From positions 63,961 through 127,960 of the forward strand of contig JACOYI010000002.1 in the NCBI GenBank assembly GCA_016181935.1: a stretch of 64,000 nucleotides of DNA. Direction: 5' to 3'. Below, one piece after another: positions 31,652-59,675 of the stretch. Each line of letters begins with the position of its first letter. Position 1 is the stretch's first letter. Made by a program: the position numbers and the translations under genes. This DNA is from Candidatus Niyogibacteria bacterium (GTDB lineage Bacteria > Patescibacteriota > Minisyncoccia > HO2-45-28). The notes under the pieces were generated by a model that saw only the letters and a list, made by a program, of their open reading frames with translations, was not told the DNA's origin and searched no databases.

Positions 31652-31884
31652 GCTTCTTTTTATGTATTAGTTCAATAAATAAGTTGTAGTAAGTGTGTGT
31701 GAATAAGGGGATAAACAGAATTTTTCGAAATATATTCAAAAATTTTACACCCTAGTTTTTGTGTTTTATGTGGATATTGTTTGGATGAAAACAAGCGCGG
31801 AAAAAATTTTTTCCAAAATCCCATTGTTATCATCAGTAAATCCACAATGTTTTACACCCGATATCCCGTCCGTTATCTGTCCGG
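31652..31884. promoter_or_regulatory. Candidate oriC segment (AT-rich dnaA-dnaN intergenic region with DnaA-box-like 9-mers)
   Basis: TGTGGATAT at 31769-31777 and AAATCCACA at 31838-31846 are near-consensus TTATCCACA boxes. The region is AT-rich and sits in a conserved origin gene context. Confidence 0.4.
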
Positions 31885-33246: not shown

Positions 33247-33384
33247 AGCGAGTTTATTATAAATTTTCCGTGTTCTGTTCCGAAATCGCAAAATCCCAAT
33301 TAAACCTTACTATATATGTTAATAACGTGTGGATACGGTGGAAAGATTGTGCAGTGCCCGAGCGTGTTGTAGAATGAAAAAACC

Positions 33385-35029: not shown

Positions 35030-35170
35030 CCACCCCAAAACCGTTGATCGGAACGAGCGCATGCCGCGAGTAGGATTCTCGGAGCGCGACGGCGCGAGAG
35101 TAAGCAGATTTTTCAGCAGAAAAATACGGCATGCCTACTCGCGGCATGCGCGAGTGAGGTTTTGGGATGG
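35030..35170. repeat. IR-flanked intergenic repeat element, copy 2 (same core as 16005-16070)
   Basis: 19-bp perfect IR GCGCATGCCGCGAGTAGG … CCTACTCGCGGCATGCGC enclosing TCGGAGCGCGACGGCGCGAGA…GATTTTTCAGCAGAA. An outer CCCCAAAACC/GGTTTTGGG pairing is also present. Confidence 0.5.
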
Positions 35171-35232: not shown

Positions 35233-36411
35233 CTATTCCGTGAGCGCGTAACTCCACAGCGAGTGGTTTTCCTTTTCCATAAAATAAAGAAAAGCGTCGT
35301 CGTCGGAGATCTCGAGTTTTTCAATATCAAAGAACCGGCCGACGGGGAGAATGACGTTCTCCCTTGTTTTCGTATTGATCTTCCATATAAGATCGCGCAA
35401 CTCGATCACCCCTTGCAGCCATTCGTCGGGATAGATCCCGCGCGGCGGATTTGAGTCGTTCGCGCAATAAATGATATCGGCATCGCGTCGCGAAAATGCG
35501 CATTGCGAGGCCATAGCGGCAACGGACAGGTTTTGCGGCGTTCCCGTTTCCGGCGCGAAGAAAAGCTCGGGTTTGCGGTTTTGTTCGTTGTATGAAGAGT
35601 AGACGAATGAACGGCCGGCAGGCGAAAGTTTGATCTCGAGCCCCAAAACGCCGCCCAAACGCTTTATGAGCGCGCCGGTTCGCGTGTTATAGGCAAAGTA
35701 AAATCCTTCCGCGACCCCCGAAGGCCGGTTTACGAGCGCGAATGTGTCGTTTGTGGGCCACAACAGCGCAAAATCCTGAAAGGCGAAGTTCGCGATACGG
35801 CGCTGACCCGTGTTGTCGGCTTTTGCGGTTATGAGGTCGGCTCCATCGCCCGACGGCAGGAGATAAGCGAACTCGGCGCCCGCCGGAGAGAACGCGCTAT
35901 CCAATAGGAGCGACGAGAGTGGGATCGCTTGGGTCGAGCTTGCGGAAAAGGTTGCCGCAACCACGCGCAGCGCGTCGCCCTCGAAGTATTTAAGGATGGC
36001 GCGCGCGGCGCCCTGCGCCCACAACGCATCAAAAACTTTAGGGATCGTGGTATTGGAAATGCGCAATTTCGTTTCCCCCTGCGGACTCACATCGAATACA
36101 TGGCCGGTTTGGCGCTCGATATAGCGAACGCCCGTAGTGCCGGTGATACCGAACCCTGCGACCGCCTCTGCGGACAAAAGCGTAAGCGCCATGCGTGGTA
36201 CTCCTTCCGTTGGTGGAGCCGAGATTCCTCCTTCGGTTGGTGTTACCTCCTCGCCGCCAAGACCGAAGATGTTGAACGGGAATCGGCGCACAATGCCCCG
36301 TTCCGGTTCCGGAATTTCCGCGGGCAGAGGACGAAAAACAAGCCAAAATGCGCCTCCGGCGATCATGAGGATGAAAAAGATGATAAGTCCGAGCGCGAGT
36401 GGTTTATTCAT
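35233..36411 (-). CDS. Hypothetical secreted/membrane-anchored protein (possible beta-propeller, TolB-like)
   Basis: N-terminal TM (LALGLIIFFILMIAGGAFWLV). The C-terminal region is repetitive and beta-rich. It is the last gene of the T4SS-like operon. Confidence 0.4.
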   Translation of the reverse strand: MNKPLALGLIIFFILMIAGGAFWLVFRPLPAEIPEPERGIVRRFPFNIFGLGGEEVTPTEGGISAPPTEGVPRMALTLLSAEAVAGFGITGTTGVRYIERQTGHVFDVSPQGETKLRISNTTIPKVFDALWAQGAARAILKYFEGDALRVVAATFSASSTQAIPLSSLLLDSAFSPAGAEFAYLLPSGDGADLITAKADNTGQRRIANFAFQDFALLWPTNDTFALVNRPSGVAEGFYFAYNTRTGALIKRLGGVLGLEIKLSPAGRSFVYSSYNEQNRKPELFFAPETGTPQNLSVAAMASQCAFSRRDADIIYCANDSNPPRGIYPDEWLQGVIELRDLIWKINTKTRENVILPVGRFFDIEKLEISDDDAFLYFMEKENHSLWSYALTE

Positions 36412-36424
36412 TGATTATTTGTTT

Positions 36425-37072
36425 CTATTTCGGTAATCCGCAACAGCGAAATCCCACCGGTGGTATTGAAGAGCAAGCCCCGGGCGCCGACACCCACCCA
36501 CCGCCGATGCTTTCGCAGGTTTGGGTGCTGGGAACGGCATTCGTTTGTTGATAATTCCCAGGCGGGCTGGTTTCAGCGCATAGGCCCGGCGTTGGAAGGT
36601 CTGGGCTTCCGCAGTAGGAATTACACTCACTTTCTGTTGCAAAGCTTCTTTCCTCCCCCGTAGGGCACACCCATGTTGTTGTGTCTATTCCCAGCGGTTG
36701 CGGCGGGCGCAACGATACGAGTTCCGGATTAATGGTGTTGAGAATAAGGAACGAAAGAAACGCAAGGATCAATCCGCCGACCGCCGCGGTGATGCGCTTT
36801 TTTGCAGCCTCCACTTGCGGAGGAGAAATGGCTCCGGTCATCCATTGAAAGCCCGCAATAACAATGACAAATACGGAAAGCAGGGTCGCGGCCGCAAGCA
36901 TTAAACGGAAAAGCCACGGCAGAAATTCGATAAAATTATCAAATTGGGGAGCTGGGGGTTGGGCGATCTGGGTGATCGGTTGCGCCTGAACAATGGCGGT
37001 CAAGAGCGAAAAAATGCCCATGGCGGCAAGGATCGTAATAGCGATAAAACAGCGATTATTGAACCGCAACAT
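36425..37072 (-). CDS. Putative T4SS pilin-like protein (VirB2/TrbC-like topology) with a Cys-rich C-terminal extension
   Basis: Signal peptide (…AIVQAQP) followed by two hydrophobic helices, as in TrbC/VirB2 pilins. A ~90-aa tail holds 9 Cys (…CPTGEE…CNSYCGSPD…CAETS…CESIGG…CSSIPPVGFRCCGLPK). Confidence 0.4.
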   Translation of the reverse strand: MLRFNNRCFIAITILAAMGIFSLLTAIVQAQPITQIAQPPAPQFDNFIEFLPWLFRLMLAAATLLSVFVIVIAGFQWMTGAISPPQVEAAKKRITAAVGGLILAFLSFLILNTINPELVSLRPPQPLGIDTTTWVCPTGEERSFATESECNSYCGSPDLPTPGLCAETSPPGNYQQTNAVPSTQTCESIGGGWVSAPGACSSIPPVGFRCCGLPK

Positions 37073-38069
37073 AAAATGATGTTTGGATCTGCTGCAAAAT
37101 ATTCACCGTATTTTGGATTTCGGCGCGGACAGAAACCGTTCCTACTGTTCCCCCCCCGCTTTTCAAACGTAACACCCCGCCCGGAGCCGCTGCAGCCGCT
37201 TGCCCGTCCACAGACCACGAGAAATTCAGCGATTCGCGGTTGTTGAATGTTGAGAAGAAAAAAGGAACTGCGCGGAATTCTTTGTCGTCATTCCGATTCA
37301 TGGAGAACGGCCGCGCCGTGCTTAATGCGCGCGCCGCGCGCACCCCTTCGAGCGGGCGCTCTTCATAAAAAAGGACTTTCGGCGATTCGACGTCAATAAA
37401 AGATGTCTTTGCCGCTGTTATGCTGTTTGATGGAGTTGAGACCTCAACCGCCACTTCATGCACGATCGTGCTGGCCTCTCCCGCTTGGAACGCAAATGTC
37501 TGTCTGCCTGCGCCCGAAAGCGCCTTATTGAATTTTCCGTCGAGCGTCCACTCGTAGATAAGCTGGGAGGCGGGAATTTCCCGACCTCCGCTTACGAGAT
37601 GCGGAATGGCGCTCACGATAACACGGGAGCGCGGGGACGCCAAACGCTTTCCTGCGTACCACGGGGGCGCGGTGGTTTGGGCGCGCCAAAGAAGGTCAAT
37701 ATCGCCGATACGGAACGACAGAGAGGCCTCGCGCGTTTTGCCGTCGGGCGCCGTTGCGACCGCGCGAAGGGCCTCTTCCGAGCCAGTGCCGCGCGCGGAG
37801 AATGTATAGGTGCGGAGCCCTGCGCCGTCCGCGACGCGCTGCCCGTTCCGGAACCACTGGATGCGCGCGCTTTGCAGGTCAACGGAAAAGCCGGTGAGCG
37901 TAGCGGTTACGGATTGGTTGGGGCCCGGGTGCTCGGGGAATAGGTTGATCGTGAGCGTGTTGAATCCGGTTTGCTGGGGAAGCGCCAATTGCGCGTGCGC
38001 TGATGCGGCGGCCAACCAGAGACCGGCCATGATCACGACAGCATACAAAATAAATGGAAGACGGTTCAT
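37056..38069 (-). CDS. Hypothetical secreted protein
   Basis: Signal peptide (…LWLAAASAHAQ). 337 aa with no recognizable domain. Start and stop overlap the neighbouring genes. Confidence 0.4.
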   Translation of the reverse strand: MNRLPFILYAVVIMAGLWLAAASAHAQLALPQQTGFNTLTINLFPEHPGPNQSVTATLTGFSVDLQSARIQWFRNGQRVADGAGLRTYTFSARGTGSEEALRAVATAPDGKTREASLSFRIGDIDLLWRAQTTAPPWYAGKRLASPRSRVIVSAIPHLVSGGREIPASQLIYEWTLDGKFNKALSGAGRQTFAFQAGEASTIVHEVAVEVSTPSNSITAAKTSFIDVESPKVLFYEERPLEGVRAARALSTARPFSMNRNDDKEFRAVPFFFSTFNNRESLNFSWSVDGQAAAAAPGGVLRLKSGGGTVGTVSVRAEIQNTVNILQQIQTSFYVAVQ

Positions 38070-38482
38070 GATTTGCGGTTATCGTGAATGATCCAGAGAA
38101 CCATCAGCGTATAGGTGGGGATAAGATCGCCGAAGGGAATGATCTCTATAGCGCCCGTAAGACCCCAGAACGGCGGTCGGCGCAATCCTTGGGAATAGAC
38201 CCAAAGCAGGATGATCCCCCACGTGGCGCCATCCAGAATGTCGCCGACAACGGGAATGGAGCCGATAATAAAATAGTCCAGCGTATCGTTGATCATGGCG
38301 ACCGCGAGCACGAGGTTAGCGATGAACATGTTCATACTTACTTGGCGCGCGGGAGCGGTCTCGTCGCCGGCGTCTTCCGGTCCTTCTTCGGCCTCTTCTT
38401 CATTTGCGAGCTTCGCTTGCCGCGCTTGGGCAAGCTCGAAGGCGCGCATCTCTTCGTCGATCGCTATCGTTCCGTTTGGCAT
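38066..38482 (-). CDS. Hypothetical membrane protein
   Basis: 138 aa with an acidic N-terminus and 3 predicted TM helices. Overlapping stop/start junctions tie it into the operon. Confidence 0.4.
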   Translation of the reverse strand: MPNGTIAIDEEMRAFELAQARQAKLANEEEAEEGPEDAGDETAPARQVSMNMFIANLVLAVAMINDTLDYFIIGSIPVVGDILDGATWGIILLWVYSQGLRRPPFWGLTGAIEIIPFGDLIPTYTLMVLWIIHDNRKS

Positions 38483-38485
38483 GGT

Positions 38486-40306
38486 TTAAGGATTGGTCGC
38501 CGCATATTCTTCTTTTGCCTGCTTGATCGCCGCAAGCTGGCTCGGGTCGGATGTGATGATCTGGTCTTCGGTATACGAACCGATGATCTTGATGGCCACG
38601 TGTTTAAGGCCGGCAAAAAACAACCCCTCTCCCACATCGGATTCCAAGATCAGGAATTTTTCCTCGTCCGTCAGATTGAATGTTTTTTGCACCTCATCAA
38701 TGGTCGCGGGCGACTGTTTGAGCAGGAGTTGGATCGAGGAATTCGTGATGATGGGAATGCCGTAGGGTGATTTCAAAAAATCGCCGACGTCCTGCGTGAT
38801 GGTGCAGACACCCAAGAAATATTTGCGCGCGCGCTTTGCGATGCCAAAAAGGAATGACGCCCCGTCTTCGCGCTTCATGATCCACCATGCCTCGTCGATC
38901 ACCAACAGGCGTTTTTTGATCTCTTTGCGGATCGCCGCCCAGATGTAATTGATGATGAGATACATCGCGACGGGCCGCAGTTCGTCCTCCATGTCGCGCA
39001 CCGAGAATACGATGAATTTTTTATTGATATCCACGTTGGTCGGCTGGTTGATGAATCCGGCCCACGTGCCCGACGTGTATTTATGAAGCCGTCCCGCGAG
39101 CGATTCCCCGCCCTCCATGTTGGCGAGCACCAATTCCAGATCCGAAAGGATGGGCGGTATCTTGCCCGTAAAATCCGTATTCGGCGTGATGTCACGCGAT
39201 GCGTACGTTTCGGTAATGGCGCGGTCCAGAACCGCATCTTCTTCGGGTGTAAGGCCGCCCAACATGATGCGGAAGAGCCCCACCAGATTGATGATGGTGG
39301 AACGAAGCACGTCCGTCGGGTCTTCGTCCTCGCGCGGAACCGGAAGTTCGAACGGGTTGATGTGGTGCGGGGAATTCAACGAGATATTGAAATAGCGGCC
39401 GTCCACGGCTTCCGCCAAGTGTTCATATTCGCGCTCAGGATCAATGACGATGACCTCGGTGTCGAACATCAAACTTCGCAAAATTTCGAGCTTGGTCGTG
39501 TAACTTTTACCCGAACCGCTTTTCGCAAAGATCACCGAATTGTAGTTTTCGAGCGAGAATCTGTCGAACAGGACCAAGCTGTTATTATGGCGGTTGACGC
39601 CGTAGAGAATTCCTTTATTGGACGTGAGATCGAATGAAACGAACGGGAAAATAGAAGAAACCGGTGAGGAATTCAGGCGGTTGGTGACTCCCAAACGATC
39701 CCTGCCCAGCGGGAACACCGTTAAGAGCCCTTCGGATTGCTGAAAAAGCGCGGGTTTTGCATACACGAGTTTGGATTGGAGCATGGAACGGATCTCAGAT
39801 TCCTCGCGGTCGAGTTCTTCGATCGAATCCGAATAAATCGTGATGTAAAAACCGAACGAAAAAAGCCGTTCTTGCGCCTGTTGGAGTTTGTCGCGCAAGT
39901 CCTCCAGATTTTGATAGGCGGCGTCGAGCATCGGGTCGCGGACCAGCCCTTTTTCCTCGCGGTCATGGATCTGCGACTGGACCTCCGCCACCTTCTTTTG
40001 GAGCTGACGCAGGACGGTTGCCGTATCGATCGGGTGGATATAGAGCGAGATATCGAATACCTTATCGAGATTGATGACGGGACTGAACCAATTGATGGAT
40101 AAGAATCGCGGGTAGGAAAAAACAAAAAGCGTTCGCGCGACTTTTTCGCCGAGTTTGACGTGATTGGCCGTGATCTCAAGCGCGGAGGGCGCGATCACGT
40201 CTTTTAATTCAAGGCGCGCGGCCTCGTAAATTTGTTCGGGCTGGATGGAGATGATCTCCTCCTCCGTTCCCGTTTTTTTCTTTTTAAATAGATCGTGTAA
40301 TGCCAT
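38486..40306 (-). CDS. virB4: VirB4/TrbE/CagE-family type IV secretion ATPase (ATPase body)
   Basis: Walker A VIFAKSGSGKSYTTK, Walker B LLVIDEAWWIM and a DUF87/AAA-like fold. The start was chosen at MALHDLFKKKK so that the upstream ORF ends just before it. Confidence 0.8.
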   Translation of the reverse strand: MALHDLFKKKKTGTEEEIISIQPEQIYEAARLELKDVIAPSALEITANHVKLGEKVARTLFVFSYPRFLSINWFSPVINLDKVFDISLYIHPIDTATVLRQLQKKVAEVQSQIHDREEKGLVRDPMLDAAYQNLEDLRDKLQQAQERLFSFGFYITIYSDSIEELDREESEIRSMLQSKLVYAKPALFQQSEGLLTVFPLGRDRLGVTNRLNSSPVSSIFPFVSFDLTSNKGILYGVNRHNNSLVLFDRFSLENYNSVIFAKSGSGKSYTTKLEILRSLMFDTEVIVIDPEREYEHLAEAVDGRYFNISLNSPHHINPFELPVPREDEDPTDVLRSTIINLVGLFRIMLGGLTPEEDAVLDRAITETYASRDITPNTDFTGKIPPILSDLELVLANMEGGESLAGRLHKYTSGTWAGFINQPTNVDINKKFIVFSVRDMEDELRPVAMYLIINYIWAAIRKEIKKRLLVIDEAWWIMKREDGASFLFGIAKRARKYFLGVCTITQDVGDFLKSPYGIPIITNSSIQLLLKQSPATIDEVQKTFNLTDEEKFLILESDVGEGLFFAGLKHVAIKIIGSYTEDQIITSDPSQLAAIKQAKEEYAATNP

Positions 40307-40311
40307 AACGA

Positions 40312-40959
40312 CTATGTTCTCATTTGGGGCGCTCGCCCTTTTTCTAATTCTCCGGGATTGAAATAGCCGTAAAAAAGTTCGACCAATTCCTCGGTATTCA
40401 ACGGCACTGTGCGTACGCCCGTGGACGCGAGCGCACCCGAAACCGTCTCGACTCTCTGCCATAGCTGGGAGCGGTATTCCTCGAATTTTGCATCATCAAA
40501 GCGCTTGGCGTCCGCCGGTTTCCCCCCGAACATTCCGCGCACCCCCTTTCCGATCTCGATCGCCGGCGGCGCGAACGAGACCACGATATAGAAATTTTTC
40601 GTGACGATCTTGGTGGTTTGGACGAATGTGCGGACGAACTCGATATATTCGCGCGTCTGGATCTTTAAGAGATCATTCGACTGCGCCCGCTCGGCTTCGC
40701 GGAGAGTTTCAAGGTAGGGCTCGATGTTCAAGTGGCGCGATTGGATGATGATCTCGACCGAAAAATCAAGCGCGTTCAAAAAGTTCTGGTATTGCGCCGT
40801 GATCGCCTCCTGTTCGTCGGCCGAACGCAGGCCAAAATTGAGCGCAGAGGCCATCAGCACCATGTGCATGTGATGATCGTCCGTGATCATCACGCCGTCG
40901 CGGATCTCGCGAATCGGGACGAATTCCTGCGCCGCTTTTCCTTTGGTGGGATTGGGCAT
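40312..40959 (-). CDS. VirB4 N-terminal-domain-like protein (split VirB4?)
   Basis: EFVPIREIRDGVMITDDHHMHMVLMASALNFGLRSADEQEAITAQYQNFLNAL resembles the N-termini of Gram-positive conjugative VirB4 homologs. Summed with the ATPase ORF the length is about 820 aa. Confidence 0.45.
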   Translation of the reverse strand: MPNPTKGKAAQEFVPIREIRDGVMITDDHHMHMVLMASALNFGLRSADEQEAITAQYQNFLNALDFSVEIIIQSRHLNIEPYLETLREAERAQSNDLLKIQTREYIEFVRTFVQTTKIVTKNFYIVVSFAPPAIEIGKGVRGMFGGKPADAKRFDDAKFEEYRSQLWQRVETVSGALASTGVRTVPLNTEELVELFYGYFNPGELEKGRAPQMRT

Positions 40960-40962
40960 ACC

Positions 40963-41367
40963 CTATTTTACCTTTTCTTTAACATCCAAACTCCATGCCA
41001 GGTCTTTTAATTTGCCTCTCGTAACCTTGGGAACTTCAAGCTTTGGACCTTCGGTCTTCGCGCCCGCCGGTTTCTCCGATTCCGTCTCGCCTCTTTTCCA
41101 AATGTAGAGCCGAGAGCCGAGGTAATAAGAGATCGCATTGCCAACGACTTTGATGAAGGGTTGGTTGTTTATCTTGTAAAAGGCAAGCGCCAATGCGAAT
41201 CCCGCGACCGGAAGTCCGAACAAAATGACGAGAAAAAACGGGAGAAAAACATACAAAATGAATACGGACGCGGCACCCCCCAGCAGATACACGAACTGCT
41301 TGAGCGTAAGCGGCCCGAAAATTTTATCCTCGACATCAATGAATTGGGGAACGTCGAATTGTCTCAT
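40963..41367 (-). CDS. PrgI/VirB3-like small membrane protein
   Basis: MRQFDVPQFIDVEDKIFGPLTLKQFVYLLGG followed by 2 TM helices. This is the PrgI-family pattern and the gene sits immediately upstream of VirB4. Confidence 0.5.
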   Translation of the reverse strand: MRQFDVPQFIDVEDKIFGPLTLKQFVYLLGGAASVFILYVFLPFFLVILFGLPVAGFALALAFYKINNQPFIKVVGNAISYYLGSRLYIWKRGETESEKPAGAKTEGPKLEVPKVTRGKLKDLAWSLDVKEKVK

Positions 41368-41927
41368 GAAATAGGTTCGCGATATGGATCCTTATTGCCC
41401 GGATAGGTTTTTTGCTCGCGCGCTTCGGATAATTCTTTTTGGGCGGAAAACACTTTTTCCTGAAGTTTGGACTCGAAGGGTGATGGCATTGGCGCGGGTG
41501 CCGGTTGTCCCAAAGGGTAGTCCTTAGGAGCGCTCAAAGGACTACCCTTTGGGAGTTCTGCGGCTGGCGGTCTGCTGACCGGCGGAGGCACGGGAATCAC
41601 GTGATCTTCTTCCATTGTGTGGACGCGGCGCAAAGAAGCGCGGATTTTTGAGAAAATGCGAACGTTTAAATCCTCGGTAATACCTTTGGAGATTTCCTCG
41701 GAAACACCGAGATTGCGCTGAAGTTTTCCAATAAAATGTTCCGGCTTAGTAAAACCGAGCATGAAATAACCGGTTTCATCCGCAAGAACCCCAATTTTAT
41801 CAACCGCGAGCCGATGTTTTTTCCCGATCATCCGAATTGCTTCCGCGGTATCCATACTGAAAATGGCATCCTTTAATTCTTGCGGAAGCCGTTGGAAGCG
41901 CTGTTGGATTTCTGTTGGCGTTGGCAT
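41364..41927 (-). CDS. Hypothetical protein (Pro-rich C-terminal half)
   Basis: 187 aa within the operon and overlapping its neighbours. No recognizable domain. Confidence 0.4.
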   Translation of the reverse strand: MPTPTEIQQRFQRLPQELKDAIFSMDTAEAIRMIGKKHRLAVDKIGVLADETGYFMLGFTKPEHFIGKLQRNLGVSEEISKGITEDLNVRIFSKIRASLRRVHTMEEDHVIPVPPPVSRPPAAELPKGSPLSAPKDYPLGQPAPAPMPSPFESKLQEKVFSAQKELSEAREQKTYPGNKDPYREPIS

Positions 41928-41945
41928 GGTTATTTCATTATATCG

Positions 41946-44309
41946 CTATATGGCAGGTCCGCGGGGCGGAATGCGCGTGTACGGCCCCGCAATCTCAATG
42001 GTCGGTTTCTCGAGGGGCTGCTGTGACTCGGTCGAAATGCCGGCCTCTTTTAATTCATCGCGGTAGGCGCCGCCGCGAACGCTGGCCGCAAGCGCTGGAT
42101 TTCCTGCCCTAGCAATGGAATCTGCCAGCTCATCCGTGGTTTTCCCGAGCGTTTTAAACGCCTCAATCATTTTTTCTGCCGCATCCCCTCCTTCCTCAAA
42201 AACACCTTTCACTGTTTTTCGGCTCAACTGTTTTACGACTTCTTCGGCGCGCGCCGGGTTTTTCATATCCGCGACAGTTGCCGAGCTGAAAACAGTTTGT
42301 TTTTCAATAGAGATGCCCGCCGCTTCCAAAATCGGCCGGCCGGCATTGCTGCGGAACCATCCGGCAAGCGTTGTATTGCCGACCTCTTCCAGCCCGTTCG
42401 CAACGTCATCCATGGTTGTTCCCATAGAGCGCAATCCCGCCGCTAATGCTTTAGCCGCATCTCCGCCCTCGTTTATGATATCTACAAGGAGTTTCGGGCT
42501 GGTAACGCCCCTAAAGACCTCCTGCGCGTAGGCTTTGTTTTTCAAGTCTTCCGCCGTCGCGTATTGGAATTCGAGCGCATCTGCGTCTTTTGTGCTGATG
42601 CCGTAATCGCGCATGTATCTCTTGTTTTGTTCGATGGCGCTGCGTGTGAACCCAATGCTTTCATCGAGTTTCAAATCTCTTCGTTTAGCAAGAATGTCCA
42701 TGATAGCCGCTTTTGTGGCGGGATCGAATGACGAGCGAAGCATATCTTTTAATTCATCTGTCGAGCGCTTGTTCAATTTTTCTTCCCGATCCAGAACAGC
42801 TTTTTTGTGTTCATTAAGGACCACATTTGCGCCGCGCTGGACAAGGCCCCCGCCGAGCCATTTTGCTGCGGGCTTGCGAAGTTGTCGCGCGAGCCACGGG
42901 GCCTCGATTTTTTGCCCGCCGAACATCTTTTCCTTGCCAACCGCCTTTTCCGCGAGTAGGCTACTCCCCGCAAGCGTCACGCGGCGCAACCCGTGCCGCC
43001 ACGCAACTCCGGGGGCTGCGCGCGTATATCCGCGCAGGCGCCCGATCGCTTTATCTGCGATGGAAGCGGACACCCCGCCCATTTTTTTGGCAAATCCTAG
43101 GGCAAAGAGGAGCATCATCACGAGCAGGATGTAATACATGACGAGCTGGAAATTCGAAATGAAGGATTTGTTCACGGAAGGATCAGCTCCCATGGTAAGT
43201 CGAACAAAGGGGTTCGCGATCATATTGACGGTGATGGAGAAGAAAAAGAAAAACCCAACGGGCCAGAGCGCGTTCGATACGAGTTTTGAGAGCCATTCGC
43301 GCGCATAGCTCTGGAGCGCGGGCAGGGTCCAGAAGAAAAAGGCGATGGGAGAGGCGATCATCAAAAACCAGAGCATGACAATGCGGACAAGAAGCATGAT
43401 GGCGACCGTAAAGAGAACAAAGGTGGCGACCGCAAGAAAAATAATAACGCCGATCATGGAGACGATGACTTGGGTGAATAGGCCTTCGGCGCCCTTCTCG
43501 AGACCTTGTTGTTGGGCAAGGAGTTGATTTTCCACGCCTTTTAAAGTTTCCAAATAGCCTTGTTGTTCTGGGGTAAGATCTCCTCCAAATGCATGCGTTC
43601 CCGTTGTTTTCCCGATTTCCTCTTGAACCGCTTTTAGGCTCGCATTTACCGCCGCCAATGAATCCGCATTGTTGTTTTCAAACGACGCAAAAAGGATATT
43701 CGGATTGACGCCCGTCACGAATTTTGCGGAAAAGGACGGCGTTGTCGCGCCCGTTCCGATCCCCGGCACAAAAAGCCGCGCGAAAAGATTCGATGATATG
43801 ATGATGTATTGCGTGAGCGCAAAGGAAAAATTAATGAAAAGCGCAACGATGATGAGACGGGCGAGCAGCCGTTTTGCGCCGTATGCTTCGAATTGGAGAA
43901 TGGTCGCGATGGCAATGACCAAAAGAACGAAAATGAAAAAAAGATTGACGGTATCGCGCGCGACAACCCACCCGGCATAGATTGCCGGCACTTGATACAT
44001 ATCGGGATTGAGCGTGAAAGCAATGACCGTATCAATAAGATTGCCGGCCAAGATAAAAAGCTGACTGACGGCCTGAAGAACGAAATAAACGAGCCACGCG
44101 AGCCACGATCCGACGCAGATGCCAAAAATATTCTCGCAGTGCGTGATCTGCGTGATGATGTTCGTGGCATCCGAGCGCGTTCCCTGCGCCAGGGCGTCGG
44201 ATAGCGGCAATAACACAAATATGCCGAGCGCGAGCACGAACACCGCTATATACAGAAACGACAATCGGAGCGGAAAAAGCTTTTTCATGAATATTAGAGC
44301 GCCTGACAT
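41946..44309 (-). CDS. VirB6/TrbL-like polytopic membrane protein with a C-terminal repeat domain
   Basis: About 400 aa of multi-TM region, then a ~350-aa hydrophilic tail with reiterated motifs (EGGDAAKA…, EAAGISIEKQ, KEAGISTESQ, DYGISTKDAD). Confidence 0.5.
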   Translation of the reverse strand: MSGALIFMKKLFPLRLSFLYIAVFVLALGIFVLLPLSDALAQGTRSDATNIITQITHCENIFGICVGSWLAWLVYFVLQAVSQLFILAGNLIDTVIAFTLNPDMYQVPAIYAGWVVARDTVNLFFIFVLLVIAIATILQFEAYGAKRLLARLIIVALFINFSFALTQYIIISSNLFARLFVPGIGTGATTPSFSAKFVTGVNPNILFASFENNNADSLAAVNASLKAVQEEIGKTTGTHAFGGDLTPEQQGYLETLKGVENQLLAQQQGLEKGAEGLFTQVIVSMIGVIIFLAVATFVLFTVAIMLLVRIVMLWFLMIASPIAFFFWTLPALQSYAREWLSKLVSNALWPVGFFFFFSITVNMIANPFVRLTMGADPSVNKSFISNFQLVMYYILLVMMLLFALGFAKKMGGVSASIADKAIGRLRGYTRAAPGVAWRHGLRRVTLAGSSLLAEKAVGKEKMFGGQKIEAPWLARQLRKPAAKWLGGGLVQRGANVVLNEHKKAVLDREEKLNKRSTDELKDMLRSSFDPATKAAIMDILAKRRDLKLDESIGFTRSAIEQNKRYMRDYGISTKDADALEFQYATAEDLKNKAYAQEVFRGVTSPKLLVDIINEGGDAAKALAAGLRSMGTTMDDVANGLEEVGNTTLAGWFRSNAGRPILEAAGISIEKQTVFSSATVADMKNPARAEEVVKQLSRKTVKGVFEEGGDAAEKMIEAFKTLGKTTDELADSIARAGNPALAASVRGGAYRDELKEAGISTESQQPLEKPTIEIAGPYTRIPPRGPAI

Positions 44310-45805
44310 GCGGTAATGGATGCGTTGTAATCCGCAAGCGCCGCCTGTAGCGCTGTCGTTGCATTTTCGGCCTCGGCAAGCGCGTCTTCGCCGATCGAGC
44401 TCGCGATGGTCGTTGCGGTTTCGGCTTCAAGTTCATCCATATTGCTCAACTTGCTTTCCGTAAGGATCCGGCTTTGAAGCACGGTCAGAGCTTGCGTACG
44501 CGTTCGCGAGCGCTGAATATCAGCGACAACAATTTGCAATTGCGCCGTGTAGGTATCGGTATCCGTTTGGAGGTCTTGACCGCTACAGGCCTCGAGCGTC
44601 TCGATCTGCGTAAGGATCGTTTGAATGGTGTTGAGAGAGGTTTGCTTTTCGTTCCTGTAGTCATTTTCACGCGCCAGCACCGGATTGAGATCTGCGAGCA
44701 GAGTCGTGCGGCGCGCCTGTAATTCTTGGAAATTCGCCTGCTCTTCTTCAAAGCTCGGGGAATCGCTCAATCCCTCGATCAGCGGCTTTACGATCAATTG
44801 GCCGACCAAGGCGGATATAATGGCGTTGATGGATTCTGCGAGATACAGCTCATTCATTTGCGCCTGCGTATTCGCGTTAAACATACCGACAATGGCGGCG
44901 CCCGGCGTTTTGTTTTCGTATTTCGCGCAACCGAATTCCTCGCTACGCTCATAAATAGGGATTTGATTGAACGGATTATTGGGGTCGGGTTCCATGCCGA
45001 CGCGTCCCTTGTTGTATTCAACGCACTCTTTGAACGCGAAGAATCCTTGGCTTGCCTGTGCTTCGTCACGATTTGCTTCAAATGTCGAAAGCGCCTGCGC
45101 ATGGAGTTGGTCCCAACGTACAAGAAAACTTCCGAATGCGTTATTGTTCACGTTCGCCGTAATGGTGATAAAAGACGCCCATCCGCCGGTAAGGAAGTTT
45201 TGATACATTTCGGTTACGTTTTCGACGATATCGGAAATCGTACAGCGCGGCCGCGGCACGCGGAATTCAAAAAGGTTGAGAATGATTTCGATCCGGAATG
45301 GACTGCAAACGGCATCCAATTGATCCGGCGTGAGCAAGCTTTCCAAAAAATAGCCGGAGGCGGTGTCAGCCGCATTCAGGGCGGATGTTCGGAAATCCTG
45401 AACAAACAGCGGTCCGCCTTCCGGAAATCCTGAATTGATCCAATTCACAATGTCGCCGGTCATCTCGACAATAATTGCGCGAAGGATGCTTTTGCCAAGA
45501 ACCTCAAAAATGTCCTTTCTCGCGCATTCTTCCCAGTCGAAAAGGTTGTAAACACAAATCGCGAGCAACGCTCCGATCGCTGCGCCCGCGAATTCCTCGG
45601 GATGTTCGGCTATCGCGTCTGCGGCTTCATTGGCGATGGCGAAGGCAATATCCGGACTTCCGCCAAAAGGACTCATAATAGTGATAAGATCGCCGAGTCC
45701 GCCATCCCCGAGCTGCGCATAAGCGGTTTTTGGCGCAAAAGCGCTCGGGATGAGCCCCACGAGCATTGTGATCAAGAGAAGGGCGGCAATAAATTTTCGC
45801 GTCAT
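44294..45805 (-). CDS. Hypothetical secreted protein with a C-terminal coiled coil
   Basis: Signal peptide (…LIPSAFAPKTAYAQ). 503 aa; the C-terminal 150 aa are coiled-coil-like. Second gene of the operon. Confidence 0.4.
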   Translation of the reverse strand: MTRKFIAALLLITMLVGLIPSAFAPKTAYAQLGDGGLGDLITIMSPFGGSPDIAFAIANEAADAIAEHPEEFAGAAIGALLAICVYNLFDWEECARKDIFEVLGKSILRAIIVEMTGDIVNWINSGFPEGGPLFVQDFRTSALNAADTASGYFLESLLTPDQLDAVCSPFRIEIILNLFEFRVPRPRCTISDIVENVTEMYQNFLTGGWASFITITANVNNNAFGSFLVRWDQLHAQALSTFEANRDEAQASQGFFAFKECVEYNKGRVGMEPDPNNPFNQIPIYERSEEFGCAKYENKTPGAAIVGMFNANTQAQMNELYLAESINAIISALVGQLIVKPLIEGLSDSPSFEEEQANFQELQARRTTLLADLNPVLARENDYRNEKQTSLNTIQTILTQIETLEACSGQDLQTDTDTYTAQLQIVVADIQRSRTRTQALTVLQSRILTESKLSNMDELEAETATTIASSIGEDALAEAENATTALQAALADYNASITACQAL

Positions 45806-46776
45806 GGCATTTTGGCGGGTTTTACAGTTTTTGCGATAAAGACATAGGCAGGATCGCCAGATGCAATGGAAATACGGTCGCGCTTCAATTGCGCCGAAAC
45901 ACTTTCAAGCGAATGTTGCAATTGCCGGGCAATTTGAACATGCGCTTCGATCAATGACGGTGCCGCAAAGAAATCATTGGGCAGGGTTTGAAAACCCGCA
46001 TTCGTTTCGGACAAACCCTCGAACGCATTGATGATGGTTAAATGCAGGTCGCGATAGTGCGCGGGAACCGGCGTTTTGAGGAGTTTTTGAGCCGCATTAG
46101 CATACGCATAGCGGTATGCCCCAAAAGCGGAAAAATATTTGACTGTATTTTCGCGGTCCGTGGCGTTTAGGAGTTGAATAAGCAGGGCCAGCTCATTCGA
46201 CTTAAAACCGCTAAAAAAAGATGTCAGAATTGCGCCAAGCTCATTCGCATATTTTTTTACCGCTTCCGAAGAGGCATCCGGAGAAATCACAATATCCGCG
46301 CCTGTCCGCTTGGTTTTTTGGGAAAAAGTCGTTGCGGTCGGAGGCGGCATGGAAACGCTTAAATACTTTCGAATTTCATCATCCGACCACCCCTGTTGCT
46401 TTAGCGTGACGACATTGGTTAAAAAATCCCGCGCGAATGCGTCGGAGGGAGAAAGAGCCGCCGCGCTGCTTTCGGTCAACGATCGGGAAACGGCCGTCGT
46501 ATCTTTTACAGCGCTCTTTTTGATCGCTTCGCCGTCCGGAATCCCGTCGCCATCCGTATCGGGATTATTCGGGTCGGTTTTCCAAAGAAGCTCTTCCCAG
46601 TCCTTCAGGCCGTCGCCATCGGAATCCGACGCTTGCTGACGGGCGGCGGCAGGTACCGCTGTGACAATAGCCGCGGTTTGCGGTGTGGATCTCGAGAGCG
46701 AGCGAACATACCAAATACCGCCTCCGACCACGAAGACGCTCACAATTCCCAAAAGGATGAACTTTGGGTTCCTCAC
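45802..46776 (-). CDS. Membrane-anchored protein with calcium-binding-like Asp-rich repeats
   Basis: N-terminal TM helix, then DSDGDGLKDWEE and DTDGDGIPDGE (thrombospondin type 3 / EF-like motifs). First gene of the operon. Confidence 0.45.
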   Translation of the reverse strand: MRNPKFILLGIVSVFVVGGGIWYVRSLSRSTPQTAAIVTAVPAAARQQASDSDGDGLKDWEELLWKTDPNNPDTDGDGIPDGEAIKKSAVKDTTAVSRSLTESSAAALSPSDAFARDFLTNVVTLKQQGWSDDEIRKYLSVSMPPPTATTFSQKTKRTGADIVISPDASSEAVKKYANELGAILTSFFSGFKSNELALLIQLLNATDRENTVKYFSAFGAYRYAYANAAQKLLKTPVPAHYRDLHLTIINAFEGLSETNAGFQTLPNDFFAAPSLIEAHVQIARQLQHSLESVSAQLKRDRISIASGDPAYVFIAKTVKPAKMP

Positions 46777-46836
46777 TTACCTTATTATAGCGCTTGACTA
46801 TCATGACCTCTTGTGGACAACCCAATAAATGGTGAG

Positions 46837-47688
46837 TTATTTGTGTAAATTTTGGCGGGCAAGGCAGAGCCATTGTTCAAGCGAAATATTTTCTGCGCGG
46901 GCTGTTTTTGATATTTTGCATTTTCCCAAAAAGGAGCCCCAAGGTCCGCCAGTTGGCGGATTAGGAATCAGATAAGGACTACCCTTAAAAGCTCCCTTTT
47001 TGAGAACACTAAGCGCGATTTTCCGCTTTTGGCCGAATGCCGTTTTAATGAGCGCGAAGTAATATCGGGAAGTCGGACTTCCCGAGATCAAAAGTGGCCG
47101 GGAGCGGCGTTCGAGAACGAGAACCGCGGAATCCACTCCAGGAGGCGGCCGGAAATTGCCGCGGGACACCCGGAACGCAATGCGTGCGGTCATGAACGGC
47201 TGAATCGAAAGCCCCAGAAGATTGGTTTTGGATTGTATGAGGCTCGGCCTCGTACGATTAGCGATGCGCTCCGCCACTTCTTTCTGAACCATCAAAACTA
47301 TCAGACTTGGAGGCCTCGCTCTATCGGACACCAAGAGACGGAAAAGCTGACCCGAAAGATAGTATGGGATATTCGCAACCACCTTAATGGACGGCACATT
47401 TGTGTTGAATTTTCTAGGTTTTTTGAGAACGTCGCGGATATCGGCTTCGATAAGGACAAGGTTTTTGTTTTTGTCGAATTTTTCGCGAAGTTTTTCGATG
47501 AGTTCCGTGTCCTTTTCAACCGCAATAACGCGCTTCGCGCGTTTTAAAAGTTCTGCTGTCAGTATGCCGGTTCCGGGACCGATTTCGAGAACGGTATCGT
47601 TCGGCTGAATATCCGCGCTTTTGGCGATGCGCTCGGCGATCCTCGGAGACGTTAGAAAATGTTGCCCTAGGCGTGTTCCCATGATCAA
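46837..47688 (-). CDS. rsmA: 16S rRNA (adenine1518/1519-N6)-dimethyltransferase
   Basis: GQHFL motif and SAM-binding VLEIGPGTGILT, the KsgA signature. Confidence 0.9.
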   Translation of the reverse strand: MIMGTRLGQHFLTSPRIAERIAKSADIQPNDTVLEIGPGTGILTAELLKRAKRVIAVEKDTELIEKLREKFDKNKNLVLIEADIRDVLKKPRKFNTNVPSIKVVANIPYYLSGQLFRLLVSDRARPPSLIVLMVQKEVAERIANRTRPSLIQSKTNLLGLSIQPFMTARIAFRVSRGNFRPPPGVDSAVLVLERRSRPLLISGSPTSRYYFALIKTAFGQKRKIALSVLKKGAFKGSPYLIPNPPTGGPWGSFLGKCKISKTARAENISLEQWLCLARQNLHK

Positions 47689-49631
47689 AGCTCAATAATC
47701 GGTTCGTTATCGGCGGGCTCGATGAGTTCCGGCGGGATTTCATCCAAAAACCGTGATGGCATATTGACCTGACGCTCGCCGAACATGGTCCGGAAGAGCG
47801 CAAGCGAGAGATATGCACGCTTGCGCGCGCGGGTCAGGGCGACATAAAAAAGCCGCCGCTCTTCTTCGATGCGCAGTTTTTCTTCTTCACCGGAAAGCGC
47901 GGTGTGCGGGAACAGGCCGTCTTCGAGGCCCGCAATGAATACATGATCGAATTCAAGGCCTTTGGCCGCATGCACCGTGGAAAGCGGTATACTCGCCTCT
48001 TTTTTGTGGATCGTGTCGTCGCCAGTCATGAGCGCCGCTTCTTCCAAAAGCGCGAGAACTCCTTGGGGCGGCTCCAGCACGTCGAATCGCTTCACAAGGC
48101 CTGCAAGCTCTTTCAGGTTGGCAAGGCGCATGAGATCGTCCTCGACTTCCGGATCAAAAAGCTCGCGGTATCCGGTTGTTTTGAAAACACAATCGAGCGC
48201 AAATGACGCCGGATGCTCATGCGCCGCTTCCCGGATGGCGGCAAGTGTATTTTCAAACGCCGCGATCTTTTGCTGTTCCGAAGCGGAAAGCGGGAGGTTG
48301 CTGAAATACTTGGCGAGGAGCACTTTCCCGATCTCGCGCCTCGGCGTATTGATGACGCGTTTGATACTCAATAGGTCATTCGGGTTCGTTGCGGCGCGGA
48401 GATACGAGAGAATATCTTTGACCTCACGGCGGGCGTAAAATTTGACGCCCACGACGTGATACGGGATCTGATGAAGCAGGAATTTTTCTTCGAGCACGCG
48501 GGACTGGGCGTTCGTGCGGAAGAGGACAGCAATGGAAGCCGGTTTTGCGCCTTCCTCCACTAAGTTTTTGGCCTTTCCTGCGATCCACTCGGCCTCATTC
48601 GCCTCATTTTCCGTCACCCGAAGCTCGATTTTGGCAAAATCGCCGTCCAGCGTCGTATAGAGATTTTTAGGTTTCCGGAAAACATTTTTTGCGATAACGG
48701 CATTCGCCGCATCGAGAATAGGCTTGGTGGAGCGGTAATTTTCCTCGAGCGTTACTACCACAGCTTCGGGCCAGTCGATCTCGAATTGGAGGATGTTGCG
48801 GAAATCCGCACCTCGGAACGAATAAATGGCTTGGTCGATGTCCCCCACCACACAGAGATTGGAATGGGTGCGCGCCAGAAGATTGGCAAGCCGGTACTGG
48901 ACGGAATCCGTATCCTGATATTCGTCGATATGGACGTATTTCCAGAGATTTTGGTATTTCGCGAGTATTTCGGGGTGCTTGTCAAAAAGATCCACGGTCC
49001 GCACCAGCAGGTCATCAAAATCGAGCGTAAGTGATCGCACCTTTTTTGCTTCATAAAGCGCCCAAACCTCGCCGAATGCGCGTGAAAAGCCGTCCTTCGC
49101 ATCCGCCAATTGCCCATCCGGCGTCAAAAGTGAGGTTTTTTTGGAAGAGATCAGATGTTTGATGCGGCGCGGTTCGAATTGTTTGGGGTCGAGCCCGAAC
49201 TCTTTGATGCATTCTTTGATGAGCGCCGTGCGGTCTTCATCGTCCAAGATCGTAAAACGGGGGTCGATTCCCACCGCTTTCCCTTCTCGGCGCAAGATCC
49301 AAGCGCCTAGGGCGTGAAAAGTGCCGATCCATGGGGAGTCCTTTAAGGGGAGTCCTTTTCTGATTCCTATTCCTAAGGACTCCCCTTGGGGATTCCCCGT
49401 AAGGAGCTTGATGATGCGTTCTTTCATCTCACCCGCCGCCTTGTTGGTGAATGTGATGGCGAGAATGGATTCCGGCACTATGCCCGATGCAATGAGATTT
49501 GCGATGCGATAGGTTAAAACGCGGGTTTTGCCTGAGCCAGCTCCCGCCACGATCAAAAGCGGTCCCGAGCGGTGCAAAACCGCCTCTTTTTGGGCGTCAT
49601 TGAGGCCGGCGAGGAGATTGGGGGTTGACAT
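47685..49631 (-). CDS. pcrA: ATP-dependent DNA helicase PcrA/UvrD
   Basis: Walker A AGAGSGKTRVLT and UvrD helicase motifs throughout. 648 aa. Confidence 0.95.
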   Translation of the reverse strand: MSTPNLLAGLNDAQKEAVLHRSGPLLIVAGAGSGKTRVLTYRIANLIASGIVPESILAITFTNKAAGEMKERIIKLLTGNPQGESLGIGIRKGLPLKDSPWIGTFHALGAWILRREGKAVGIDPRFTILDDEDRTALIKECIKEFGLDPKQFEPRRIKHLISSKKTSLLTPDGQLADAKDGFSRAFGEVWALYEAKKVRSLTLDFDDLLVRTVDLFDKHPEILAKYQNLWKYVHIDEYQDTDSVQYRLANLLARTHSNLCVVGDIDQAIYSFRGADFRNILQFEIDWPEAVVVTLEENYRSTKPILDAANAVIAKNVFRKPKNLYTTLDGDFAKIELRVTENEANEAEWIAGKAKNLVEEGAKPASIAVLFRTNAQSRVLEEKFLLHQIPYHVVGVKFYARREVKDILSYLRAATNPNDLLSIKRVINTPRREIGKVLLAKYFSNLPLSASEQQKIAAFENTLAAIREAAHEHPASFALDCVFKTTGYRELFDPEVEDDLMRLANLKELAGLVKRFDVLEPPQGVLALLEEAALMTGDDTIHKKEASIPLSTVHAAKGLEFDHVFIAGLEDGLFPHTALSGEEEKLRIEEERRLFYVALTRARKRAYLSLALFRTMFGERQVNMPSRFLDEIPPELIEPADNEPIIEL

Positions 49632-50294: not shown

Positions 50295-50492
50295 GTATCC
50301 GGTAGCAATACCGGACTTTGATTGAAAAGACCGGAAAACGCTGATTTTACGGAGAAAACCGGGCTAACCTGGTTTTGAACTCGTATTATAGAAACCTCAA
50401 AACGCTCATCGGCCGCCCCCGCGAAACAGGACGCCGAGAGCCATAAAAACTCCTCAAAAGGACTTTCCGCGATTGCAAAGTCCTTTTTGGCT
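50295..50492 (+). promoter_or_regulatory. Structured 5' leader ending in an intrinsic terminator upstream of the LysM/M23 peptidase gene
   Basis: Promoter-like TTGACT at about 50260. Several hairpins (CCGGTAGCAATACCGG; AAACCGGGCTAACCTGGTTT). A terminator AAAGGACTTT-(10 nt)-AAAGTCCTTT plus a T-run ends exactly at the TTG start. Confidence 0.35.
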
Positions 50493-59648: not shown

Positions 59649-59675
59649 CCCCGGCTTCGGCCGGGGATTTTTTTA
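59649..59675. terminator. Bidirectional terminator
   Basis: CCCCGGC-TTCG-GCCGGGG followed by ATTTTTTTA. It overlaps the stop of the Cys-rich gene on the opposite strand. Confidence 0.55.

Follow-up and report, generated by a model that had tools for sequence, protein, structure and literature searches.

A chromosomal type IV secretion locus beside the replication origin of a Candidatus Niyogibacteria genome and its probable role in host interaction

What is a compact eleven-gene operon for when it lies beside the replication origin of a bacterium with a small genome, and does it secrete, import or conjugate? The question is raised by a 64,000-nucleotide stretch of Candidatus Niyogibacteria DNA (contig JACOYI010000002.1, positions 63,961 to 127,960; the whole stretch is called the window here and all coordinates refer to it). 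Eleven minus-strand open reading frames (ORFs), g1 to g11 in the direction of transcription, fill the interval 35233-46776 in tight packing (Table 1). These boundaries agree with an earlier note, made from the DNA letters, which had read the interval as a minimal type IV secretion system (T4SS) or conjugation-like apparatus. We conclude, with a probability of roughly 0.8, that the locus is the T4SS which the Patescibacteria clade inherits vertically on its chromosome and which arose from monoderm (MPF_FATA, CD1110-type) conjugation machinery, and that it serves host interaction, not conjugation. The organism belongs to the Patescibacteria (Candidatus Niyogibacteria, Paceibacteria), in agreement with the small-genome lineage that had been assumed. 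Nearly all ultrasmall Patescibacteria have this origin-proximal cluster. Few conserved machines are likely to explain how a large fraction of uncultivated bacteria live on other cells, and the T4SS of this group, essential in the single species tested, is among them.

To obtain loci for comparison, one genome per species was scanned; this gave 534 VirB4 relatives, of which the best 80 loci were compared. They come from Niyogi-, Giovannoni-, Kaiser-, Zambryski-, Nomura-, Adler-, Wolfe-, Taylor- and Campbell-bacteria; 35 span the whole interval and are called complete loci below. The motor protein, g7, matches the NCBIfam equivalog NF045971 (VirB4-like conjugal transfer ATPase, CD1110 family) over model positions 172-732 only, scoring 374 bits where the cutoff is 325. 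It also matches the TraG P-loop domain (PF19044, Pfam, E 6e-29) and TrwK of R388 (E 7e-8), and its closest solved structure is the C-terminal domain of VirB4 from Thermoanaerobacter sp. (4AG5, E 1.7e-42). Walker A (AKSGSGKS, 39503-39526) and Walker B (LLVIDEAW, 38885-38908) are both intact, and the true start lies at 40306 (MALHD...), not at the mechanical ORF start 40462. Homologues measure ~600-610 residues throughout and are 72-97% identical across Paceibacteria. The best 120 of 8,000 scored homologues have 75-97% identity, and all of their source names refer to a metagenome-assembled genome (MAG) of Patescibacteria or of an unclassified bacterium; the 80 loci (72-97%) belong to the same groups. 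Outside the candidate phyla radiation, the best relatives are CD1110-type plasmid proteins of Firmicutes and Actinobacteria, with 29-35% identity.

Judged by its profile matches, g6 supplies the N-terminal VirB4 part absent from g7. It aligns with two NCBIfam VirB4 models, CD1110 (positions 2-121) and Mbov_0397 (positions 103-233), and with TrsD at E 1.4e-3 (NCBIfam). All 51 orthologues match VirB4 N-terminal models and 46 of the 51 match TrsD (best E 1.3e-10); a profile search of the PDB with g6 gave no match. The g6 stop is followed by 5 nt and then the g7 start, and a g6-g7 fusion occurs in 0 of the 80 loci. Because of this spacing, the lack of fusions and the uniform length of g7, the split of VirB4 is regarded as a conserved feature and not as the product of a frameshift. 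The earlier note had therefore named the right family for the ATPase while counting one gene where there are two, TrsD-like g6 and the ATPase g7 starting at 40306.

The membrane partners follow on the 5′ side. The small protein g5 passes the PrgI model (PF12666) with E 2.5e-10 and 41.2 bits (gathering cutoff, GA, 27); it is present in 78 of the 80 loci, and once the three closest relatives are set aside its identity is 44-57%. The polytopic protein g3 passes TrbL (PF04610, Pfam) with 28.9 bits (GA 25.9) and also resembles the CD3337/EF1877 mobilome membrane protein (E 1.3e-3, NCBIfam). Of its 42 orthologues, 8 match TrbL (best E 3.5e-10) and 2 carry MgtE_N in the tail. Its layout consists of a signal-like first helix, about seven transmembrane (TM) segments (residues 1-410), a K/R-rich stretch after the last TM segment and a hydrophilic C-terminal domain of ~375 residues (41949-43079) that is probably cytoplasmic. 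Other gene callers place the g3 start at ~44288 instead of 44309. Conservation across loci is confined to the TM core, and g3 is found in all 35 complete loci. The T4SS-type apparatus that had been predicted is thus borne out by VirB4, PrgI and TrbL scores that all exceed their cutoffs: an ATPase with nucleotide-binding motifs lies beside VirB3-like and VirB6-like partners. On these family matches, g3, g5, g6 and g7 are identified as the cytoplasmic-membrane translocon and g10 as its VirB2-type pilin.

The pilin assignment depends on relatives of g10. Taken alone, the protein scores below cutoff against PF18895 (E 5.6e-4), TrbC (E 2e-3) and the Mbov_0395 pilin-like model (E 1.3e-4), and its profile finds VirB2 in the PDB at E 1.7 and 3.5 only. 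Among the positional orthologues, however, 36 of 44 match PF18895 (best E 2.4e-10), so that the VirB2/TrbC-topology pilin proposed earlier holds through its family. A signal peptide (residues 1-31, VQA|Q) precedes a two-helix pilin core (residues 32-116, 36725-36979) and a C-terminal extension of 99 residues with eight cysteines (36428-36724). In the orthologue alignment the core is conserved and the tail variable.

The same block recurs across the class. With few exceptions among the 80 loci, the order is pcrA-ksgA-g1-g2-VirB6-g4-PrgI-TrsD-VirB4-(g8)-g9-pilin-g11, convergent with jag-yidC. VirB6, PrgI, TrsD, VirB4, g9 and g11 each occur in 35/35 complete loci, and the flanking genes are the same in all 35. 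The six further genes co-occur with the core genes at conserved positions. All eleven genes have positional orthologues elsewhere in the class, and because of this the locus is a full lineage-specific apparatus and not a stripped remnant, which makes the earlier description of a stripped-down or minimal machine questionable. Median identity is 73% for VirB4, 50% each for PrgI and TrsD, and 27-37% for g1, g2, g9, g11 and the pilin; in the same loci DnaA (31885-33291) reaches 47%, PcrA 46%, YidC 38% and KsgA 38%, the loci having been picked by VirB4 similarity, which inflates the VirB4 figures. This contrast fits a conserved motor combined with a diversifying surface for host-specific contact. 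The lead of VirB4 over DnaA is also an indirect hint, subject to the same ascertainment bias, that the system may be essential for epibiotic growth here as it is in Saccharibacteria.

The chromosomal setting is equally constant. A switch in the sign of GC skew together with an AT-rich dip places oriC at ~31-32 kb, where the dnaN-dnaA spacer falls to a GC content of 0.43 and holds two DnaA-box-like 9-mers (31000-32000). From these two signals it follows that the operon with ksgA and pcrA (35233-49631) lies 3.5-18 kb from the origin. These genes are on the lagging strand and are transcribed head-on to replication, an orientation that is kept in related loci. The GC content of the operon (0.51-0.57) is the same as that of its flanks, the flanks are fixed, and the sole integrase-family ORF is XerC/D-like and 15 kb away; none of this resembles a mobile element. 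Because the same order is found in dozens of Paceibacteria genomes, the locus is core chromosome and not an integrative and conjugative element (ICE). An ICE or plasmid origin is ruled out by synteny and composition, and the judgement that this is no classical ICE stands. The predicted absence of relaxase, VirD4 and VirB11 was likewise reproduced: none of these families was found among 31 scanned proteins of the 64-kb window, which include every ORF of at least 500 residues except pcrA (recognised by sequence and position only). With TrsD next to virB4, a VirB2-like pilin nearby and an origin-proximal context without relaxase or coupling protein (T4CP) in the window, the locus shows these features of the Patescibacteria-clade T4SS.

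That clade has been described, contrary to the view that the subunit set was uncharacterized (PMC10633639, PMC12102498, PMC12857230). In the saccharibacterium Southlakia epibionticum, the cluster SEML1_0006-0019 is essential for epibiotic growth, origin-proximal, Gram-positive-like and equipped with pilins, and it has no recognizable relaxase or coupling protein (Wang et al., 2023, PMC10633639). Its tables list a 612-residue VirB4 (0008), PrgI, six pilins and two VirB6-like proteins whose tails bear ARM repeats (PMC10633639); the hypothetical protein adjoining VirB4 (0009) is a TrsD homologue according to PMC12102498. That paper (Quinonero-Coronel et al., 2025) also reports VirB4 in 2,417 of 3,035 Patescibacteria genomes, where it forms a single monophyletic group within MPF_FATA. 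TrsD is its commonest partner, VirB3, VirB6 and VirB2-like pilins lie near virB4, and the Paceibacteria cluster adjoins dnaA/dnaN, rnpA and ksgA. A 2025 review restates these points on the Patescibacteria T4SS (PMC12857230), and the host attachment or DNA/protein uptake suggested in the earlier note had already been raised as speculation (PMC11665869).

Compared with the Paceibacteria arrangement in PMC12102498, nothing essential differs. Both have a VirB4 of ~600 residues, adjacent TrsD, PrgI/VirB3, VirB6 and a VirB2-like pilin, lack a relaxase or T4CP nearby, share the dnaA/dnaN-rnpA-ksgA location and have their closest outside relatives in monoderm MPF_FATA systems; the accessory folds and the pilin extension are noted here. 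In the sections of that article covered here the words 'extension', 'TolB' and 'propeller' are absent and the sole 'C-terminal' concerns VirB1. Like the present locus, the cluster of S. epibionticum ML1 is origin-proximal, with the order VirB6-like, PrgI, TrsD-like (0009), VirB4 (0008). Further shared features are large C-terminal domains on the VirB6-like proteins (helical, ARM-repeat, in ML1), an adjoining Ig-like exported protein (SEML1_0005), PF18895 pilins and the lack of a recognizable coupling or relaxase protein; nearly all ML1 genes are essential. In contrast, ML1 has an array of six short pilins where a single one with a Cys-rich extension of 99 residues occurs here, and it has lysozyme-like hydrolases (0006) and an NTF2-like VirB8-like protein (0012), neither of which was recognised in the operon. 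Unlike g1 and g11, none of the SEML1_0004-0019 genes shown in Table S2 is assigned a TSP3-repeat or TolB-like fold.

The Gram-positive MPF_FATA systems (pGO1/pSK41 trs, pIP501 tra, pCF10 prg, CTn2 CD1110) share the CD1110 VirB4, the PrgI-type VirB3, the VirB6/TrbL channel, a separate TrsD (as in pGO1) and the lack of outer-membrane core subunits. They differ in that they are carried on mobile elements, whereas the locus here has a fixed core-genome position, only 29-35% VirB4 identity to them, and no relaxase, T4CP, VirB1-type hydrolase or recognisable VirB8-like protein; it does have a VirB2-type pilin, which Gram-positive systems lack (PMC12857230). The locus therefore adds no new kind of system. 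It shows that gene block and order recur across Paceibacteria and gives provisional assignments to previously grey genes; since the system was published in 2023 and 2025, what is new stands at the level of leads, namely the accessory annotation, the pilin modules, the g2 bundle and the g4 tail.

Among other explanations, the one that survives best is that the same apparatus works inward, like ComB of H. pylori or archaeal Ced, and takes up host DNA, nucleotides or other building blocks that the reduced genome cannot make. We consider this unlikely. As in ComB-type systems, the window holds no relaxase or T4CP, and uptake has been raised as a possibility in the literature (PMC11665869, PMC12857230); transport direction is fixed by no finding here. 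The similarity of VirB4 to CedB (E 1e-12) and CedD (NCBIfam) is weak, CedB giving 47.6 bits against a cutoff of 700 (compared with 374 for CD1110) and CedD 26 bits against 600; a Ced- or ComB-type import ATPase with its partners was not recognised at family level, no search having been aimed at ComB partners. Searches of the operon proteins against Pfam and NCBIfam turned up neither a DNA-binding nor a nuclease domain. Furthermore, in S. epibionticum the T4SS is essential and comEC-dependent competence dispensable (PMC12857230), and therefore classical DNA uptake does not explain the essentiality, which leaves room for a ComEC-independent route.

A true conjugation system, whose relaxase, oriT and coupling protein are too divergent to be recognised or lie in another part of the genome, is far less plausible. 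The name of the VirB4 family to which g7 belongs refers to conjugal transfer, and the analysis covers 64 kb of the genome only; in addition, PMC12102498 describes t4cp as often distant from virB4 and counts thousands of VirD4 homologues in Patescibacteria. Against this, the position beside oriC is fixed in the core genome across the whole class, and the locus shows no compositional anomaly. The same paper reports relaxases in only 103 of 3,035 Patescibacteria genomes, rare VirB4 exchange between classes, and a non-essential t4cp homologue in S. epibionticum, where T4SS genes are essential. A pilus-forming host-interaction machine or conduit is thus the best reading and is favoured over a conjugation system. 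That g7 is instead a HerA/FtsK-type P-loop ATPase, or a decayed remnant, beside unrelated envelope genes, as its DUF87/HerA and AAA_10 Pfam matches and the many homologues named only 'DUF87 domain-containing protein' at NCBI might suggest, is effectively refuted by the family scores (an equivalog VirB4 match above cutoff over 560 residues with intact Walker motifs), by the canonical partners PrgI, TrbL and pilin in the same operon and by the matches of the pilin and g6 orthologues, decay of g7 being excluded because its conservation is extreme.

Several points weigh against a vertically inherited host-interaction T4SS. To our knowledge, no experiment has been made on any Paceibacteria T4SS, and the window copy of g10 by itself misses the Pfam thresholds. 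No VirB8-like or VirB1-like subunit was recognised among the 11 operon proteins (Pfam, NCBIfam); an NTF2-like VirB8 or a peptidoglycan hydrolase gave no sequence-level match in them, structure prediction having covered g2 alone. Export and import are not distinguished by any result, and the selection of loci by VirB4 similarity bears on the identity contrast given above. In a perspective of 2024, what the Saccharibacteria system does is described as completely unknown (PMC11665869). A relaxase or T4CP may be encoded elsewhere in this genome, of which the window covers 64 kb, and PMC12102498 reports many distant VirD4 homologues in Patescibacteria.

If the host-interaction T4SS is taken as the working model, its parts could act as follows. 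By analogy with known systems, the ATPase g7, docked to the membrane via g6 and g5, would power extraction of pilin and its polymerisation through the VirB6 channel, and the g10 polymer would form a pilus or conduit across the monoderm wall. The pilin extension together with g1 (Ca-binding), g2 (possibly a VirB5-like tip or adhesin), g9 and g11 would constitute the extracellular, fast-evolving part that contacts the host; this part is assigned the crossing of the wall because there is no outer membrane and there are no core-complex genes. The cytoplasmic tail of VirB6 and the DPYREP tail of g4 may be docking parts that replace the coupling protein. In epibiotic life the machine would then make contact with the host and allow proteins or other molecules to pass between it and the symbiont, without conjugation. 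A surface role is consistent with the predicted Sec signals or membrane anchors, the adhesin domains of some g2 orthologues, the Ig-like repeats of g9 and the variable Cys-rich pilin tails.

The fold or feature assignments for the six accessory proteins (g1, g2, g4, g8, g9, g11) are provisional. The repeats of g1 (residues ~49-86, 46519-46632) match PF18884 TSP3_bac at E 2.7e-8, in line with the Ca-binding-repeat protein seen earlier, and only across these repeats does its orthologue profile find the biofilm-associated surface protein 7c7u (E 1e-6). Across 29 orthologues there is no variation at D51, D53, D55, W60, E62, D73, D81, Y176 or H245 and almost none at N250 and D268. The protein has one hydrophobic segment (residues 6-24) and was found by tblastn in 17 of the 35 complete syntenic loci.

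The next protein, g2, occurs in 32 of the 35 and combines a conserved N-terminal domain with a C-terminal helical bundle (residues ~353-503). It has no Pfam, NCBIfam or PDB sequence match; its large family, which lacks annotation, comprises 5802 cluster representatives, and a 100% identical protein is annotated in a Candidatus Niyogibacteria MAG. Word-indexed searches with the single sequence or the alignment returned the same 8 proteins, from which the AlphaFold2 (AF2) model was poor (pLDDT 52.8); with 112 sequences the pLDDT rose to 71 and the C-terminal bundle became very confident. A Foldseek search of the PDB with the model gave nothing significant. The modelled bundle weakly resembles VirB5/TraC, a lead only: designed and unrelated helical bundles score equally well or better in the same structure search. 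Moreover, g2 shares no sequence-level similarity with the VirB5/TraC minor pilin (1r8i), is more than twice as long and has a large conserved Cys-containing N-domain. Some g2 orthologues add bacterial surface Ig-like (E 1e-19), F5/8 type C discoidin or SdrD B-like (E 6.5e-15) domains, and these adhesin-type domains therefore indicate a surface-binding role for the family; long homologues with N-terminal extensions show no Pfam domains. The protein g2 is a candidate surface or pilus-associated adhesin.

For g4, a small protein predicted to be cytoplasmic, there is no Pfam, NCBIfam or PDB match. Its DPYREP tail (41373-41390) is the only such motif in the window, and DPYRE recurs in the last ~10 residues of about 45 of 50 orthologues; in 38 orthologues L40, D180, P181, Y182 and E184 are invariant. 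From this pattern the tail looks like a putative docking tail. Similarly, g8 has no Pfam or NCBIfam family. In many loci the position between VirB4 and g9 holds a small polytopic membrane protein of 110-250 residues with 3-5 TM segments and an E-x-I-P...LPxWT motif. These equivalents went undetected by tblastn; among the query proteins, a profile built from them matches g8 alone (E 1e-9, 28.5 bits). This match places g8 in a divergent family whose members are small polytopic membrane proteins. It is absent in about a quarter of loci, where the gap between VirB4 and g9 is below 50 nt.

The three segments of g9 align pairwise in hhalign with probabilities of 94-98%, and W72, W174 and W285 are invariant. 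Its profile matches the Ig-like phage protein Hoc (E 8e-4), while orthologues match BiPBP_C (13 of 46) and PKD-like (5 of 46) domains; g9 is present in 77 of the 80 loci. The orthologue profile of g11 matches TolB structures at E 2.5e-6 to 7e-6, and its orthologues give weak PD40, DPPIV_N and other beta-propeller matches. A TM segment spans residues 7-25.

The pilin extension is hypervariable. In Paceibacteria, extensions after the second helix are near-universal, range from 9 to 283 residues (median 124) and carry at least 2 cysteines in 43 of 47 cases. Some resemble long coiled coils in the alignment. One pilin orthologue contains a Pfam VanY peptidase domain, and five other extensions show LAS/M15-like H..D...HxH motifs by eye; PDB searches with a single sequence and with a 4-sequence profile did not confirm an M15/LAS metallopeptidase in these C-termini. 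In known conjugative pili (the F- and T-pilus structures) both pilin termini face outward, and C-terminal modules would therefore decorate the pilus surface. Hypervariable Cys-rich pilin modules are possibly new, as a lead only. A bolder and rather doubtful proposal is that the Paceibacteria pilus is built from a single VirB2-type pilin with a hypervariable disulfide-rich module (in some lineages a peptidoglycan metallopeptidase or a long coiled coil), so that its surface is a host-specific adhesin or wall-cutting tool, with g2 as VirB5-like tip and the tails of g4 (DPYREP) and VirB6 in place of a coupling protein. Such a pilus, if real, would be a modular device for feeding or attachment and would differ from the multi-pilin arrays seen in Saccharibacteria. 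The testable hypotheses yielded by the locus are accordingly variable modules on the pilin C-terminus, g2 as a VirB5-like candidate and a docking tail on g4.

Table 1. Genes of the operon and other features of the window.
Feature	Position	Strand	Length	Description	Family or remark
g1	45802-46776	-	324 aa	N-terminal membrane anchor, TSP3 Ca-binding repeats, C-terminal domain of unknown family
g2	44294-45805	-	503 aa	Sec-signal protein (AYA|Q), eight cysteines
g3	41946-44309	-	787 aa	Extended VirB6/TrbL-like polytopic membrane protein	PF04610
g4	41364-41927	-	187 aa	No TM segment; ~100-aa helical N-domain, Pro-rich linker, conserved C-terminal DPYREP tail
g5	40963-41367	-	134 aa	PrgI/VirB3-like membrane protein	PF12666
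g6	40312-40959	-	215 aa	TrsD-like, free-standing homologue of VirB4 N-terminal domain
g7	38486-40306	-	606 aa	VirB4-family ATPase without N-terminal domain	NF045971
g8	38066-38482	-	138 aa	Small membrane protein, acidic N-terminus, E-x-I-P...(L/I)P-x-(W/Y)-T motif
g9	37056-38069	-	337 aa	Sec-signal protein (AHA|Q), three homologous ~100-aa Ig-like beta-sandwich domains
g10	36425-37072	-	215 aa	VirB2/TrbC-type T4SS pilin	PF18895 in orthologues
g11	35233-36411	-	392 aa	N-terminally membrane-anchored TolB-like beta-propeller
Candidate operon terminator	35129-35149	-		Terminator-like hairpin, then T-run	84 nt 3′ of g11 stop; consensus scan only
ksgA-g1 spacer	46777-46836	-	60 nt		Sequence reading
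PilB-type ATPase	19725-21398	+		Type IV pilus assembly ATPase, T2SSE and MshEN domains	Sole T2SSE-family ATPase found in window
LysM/M23 protein	50487-51473	+		Two LysM domains and Peptidase_M23	Outside operon, 3.7 kb beyond
Cys-rich protein	59673-61430	-	585 aa	Repeated C-x-x-C-like motifs, no Pfam family
XerC/D-like recombinase	61457-62368	+		Tyrosine recombinase	Sole integrase-family ORF, 15 kb from operon

By their ORF coordinates, neighbouring operon genes overlap by up to 17 nt or are separated by up to 18 nt, and because the junctions are so short a single transcription unit from g1 to g11 fits. Promoter and terminator scans gave region-wide site counts at or below shuffled expectation, and the operon boundaries therefore rest on gene spacing. 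In the ksgA-g1 spacer no two-hexamer promoter was called by the promoter scan. The spacer contains a perfect TATAAT (46784-46789) ending 7 nt ahead of the GTG start of g1, a placement that suggests a leaderless-type start, and a putative DnaA-box-like 9-mer (TTGTCCACA, 46812-46820) 22 nt upstream of the TATAAT.

The window flanks the operon with dnaN, dnaA, rnpA, yidC and jag on one side and ksgA and pcrA on the other. The rest is core chromosome and includes UvrB, PolA, PBP1, RuvB, a class I (Trp/Tyr-type) tRNA synthetase, ComM, PNPase and a Mur ligase. From the PilB-type ATPase it follows that a type IV pilus system, as is typical of the phylum, is present in the genome as well. The XerC/D-like recombinase is probably a chromosome dimer resolvase and not a mobile-element integrase. 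Proteins with M23 and LysM domains, like the one encoded beyond the operon, are listed in the literature as possible VirB1 stand-ins in Patescibacteria.

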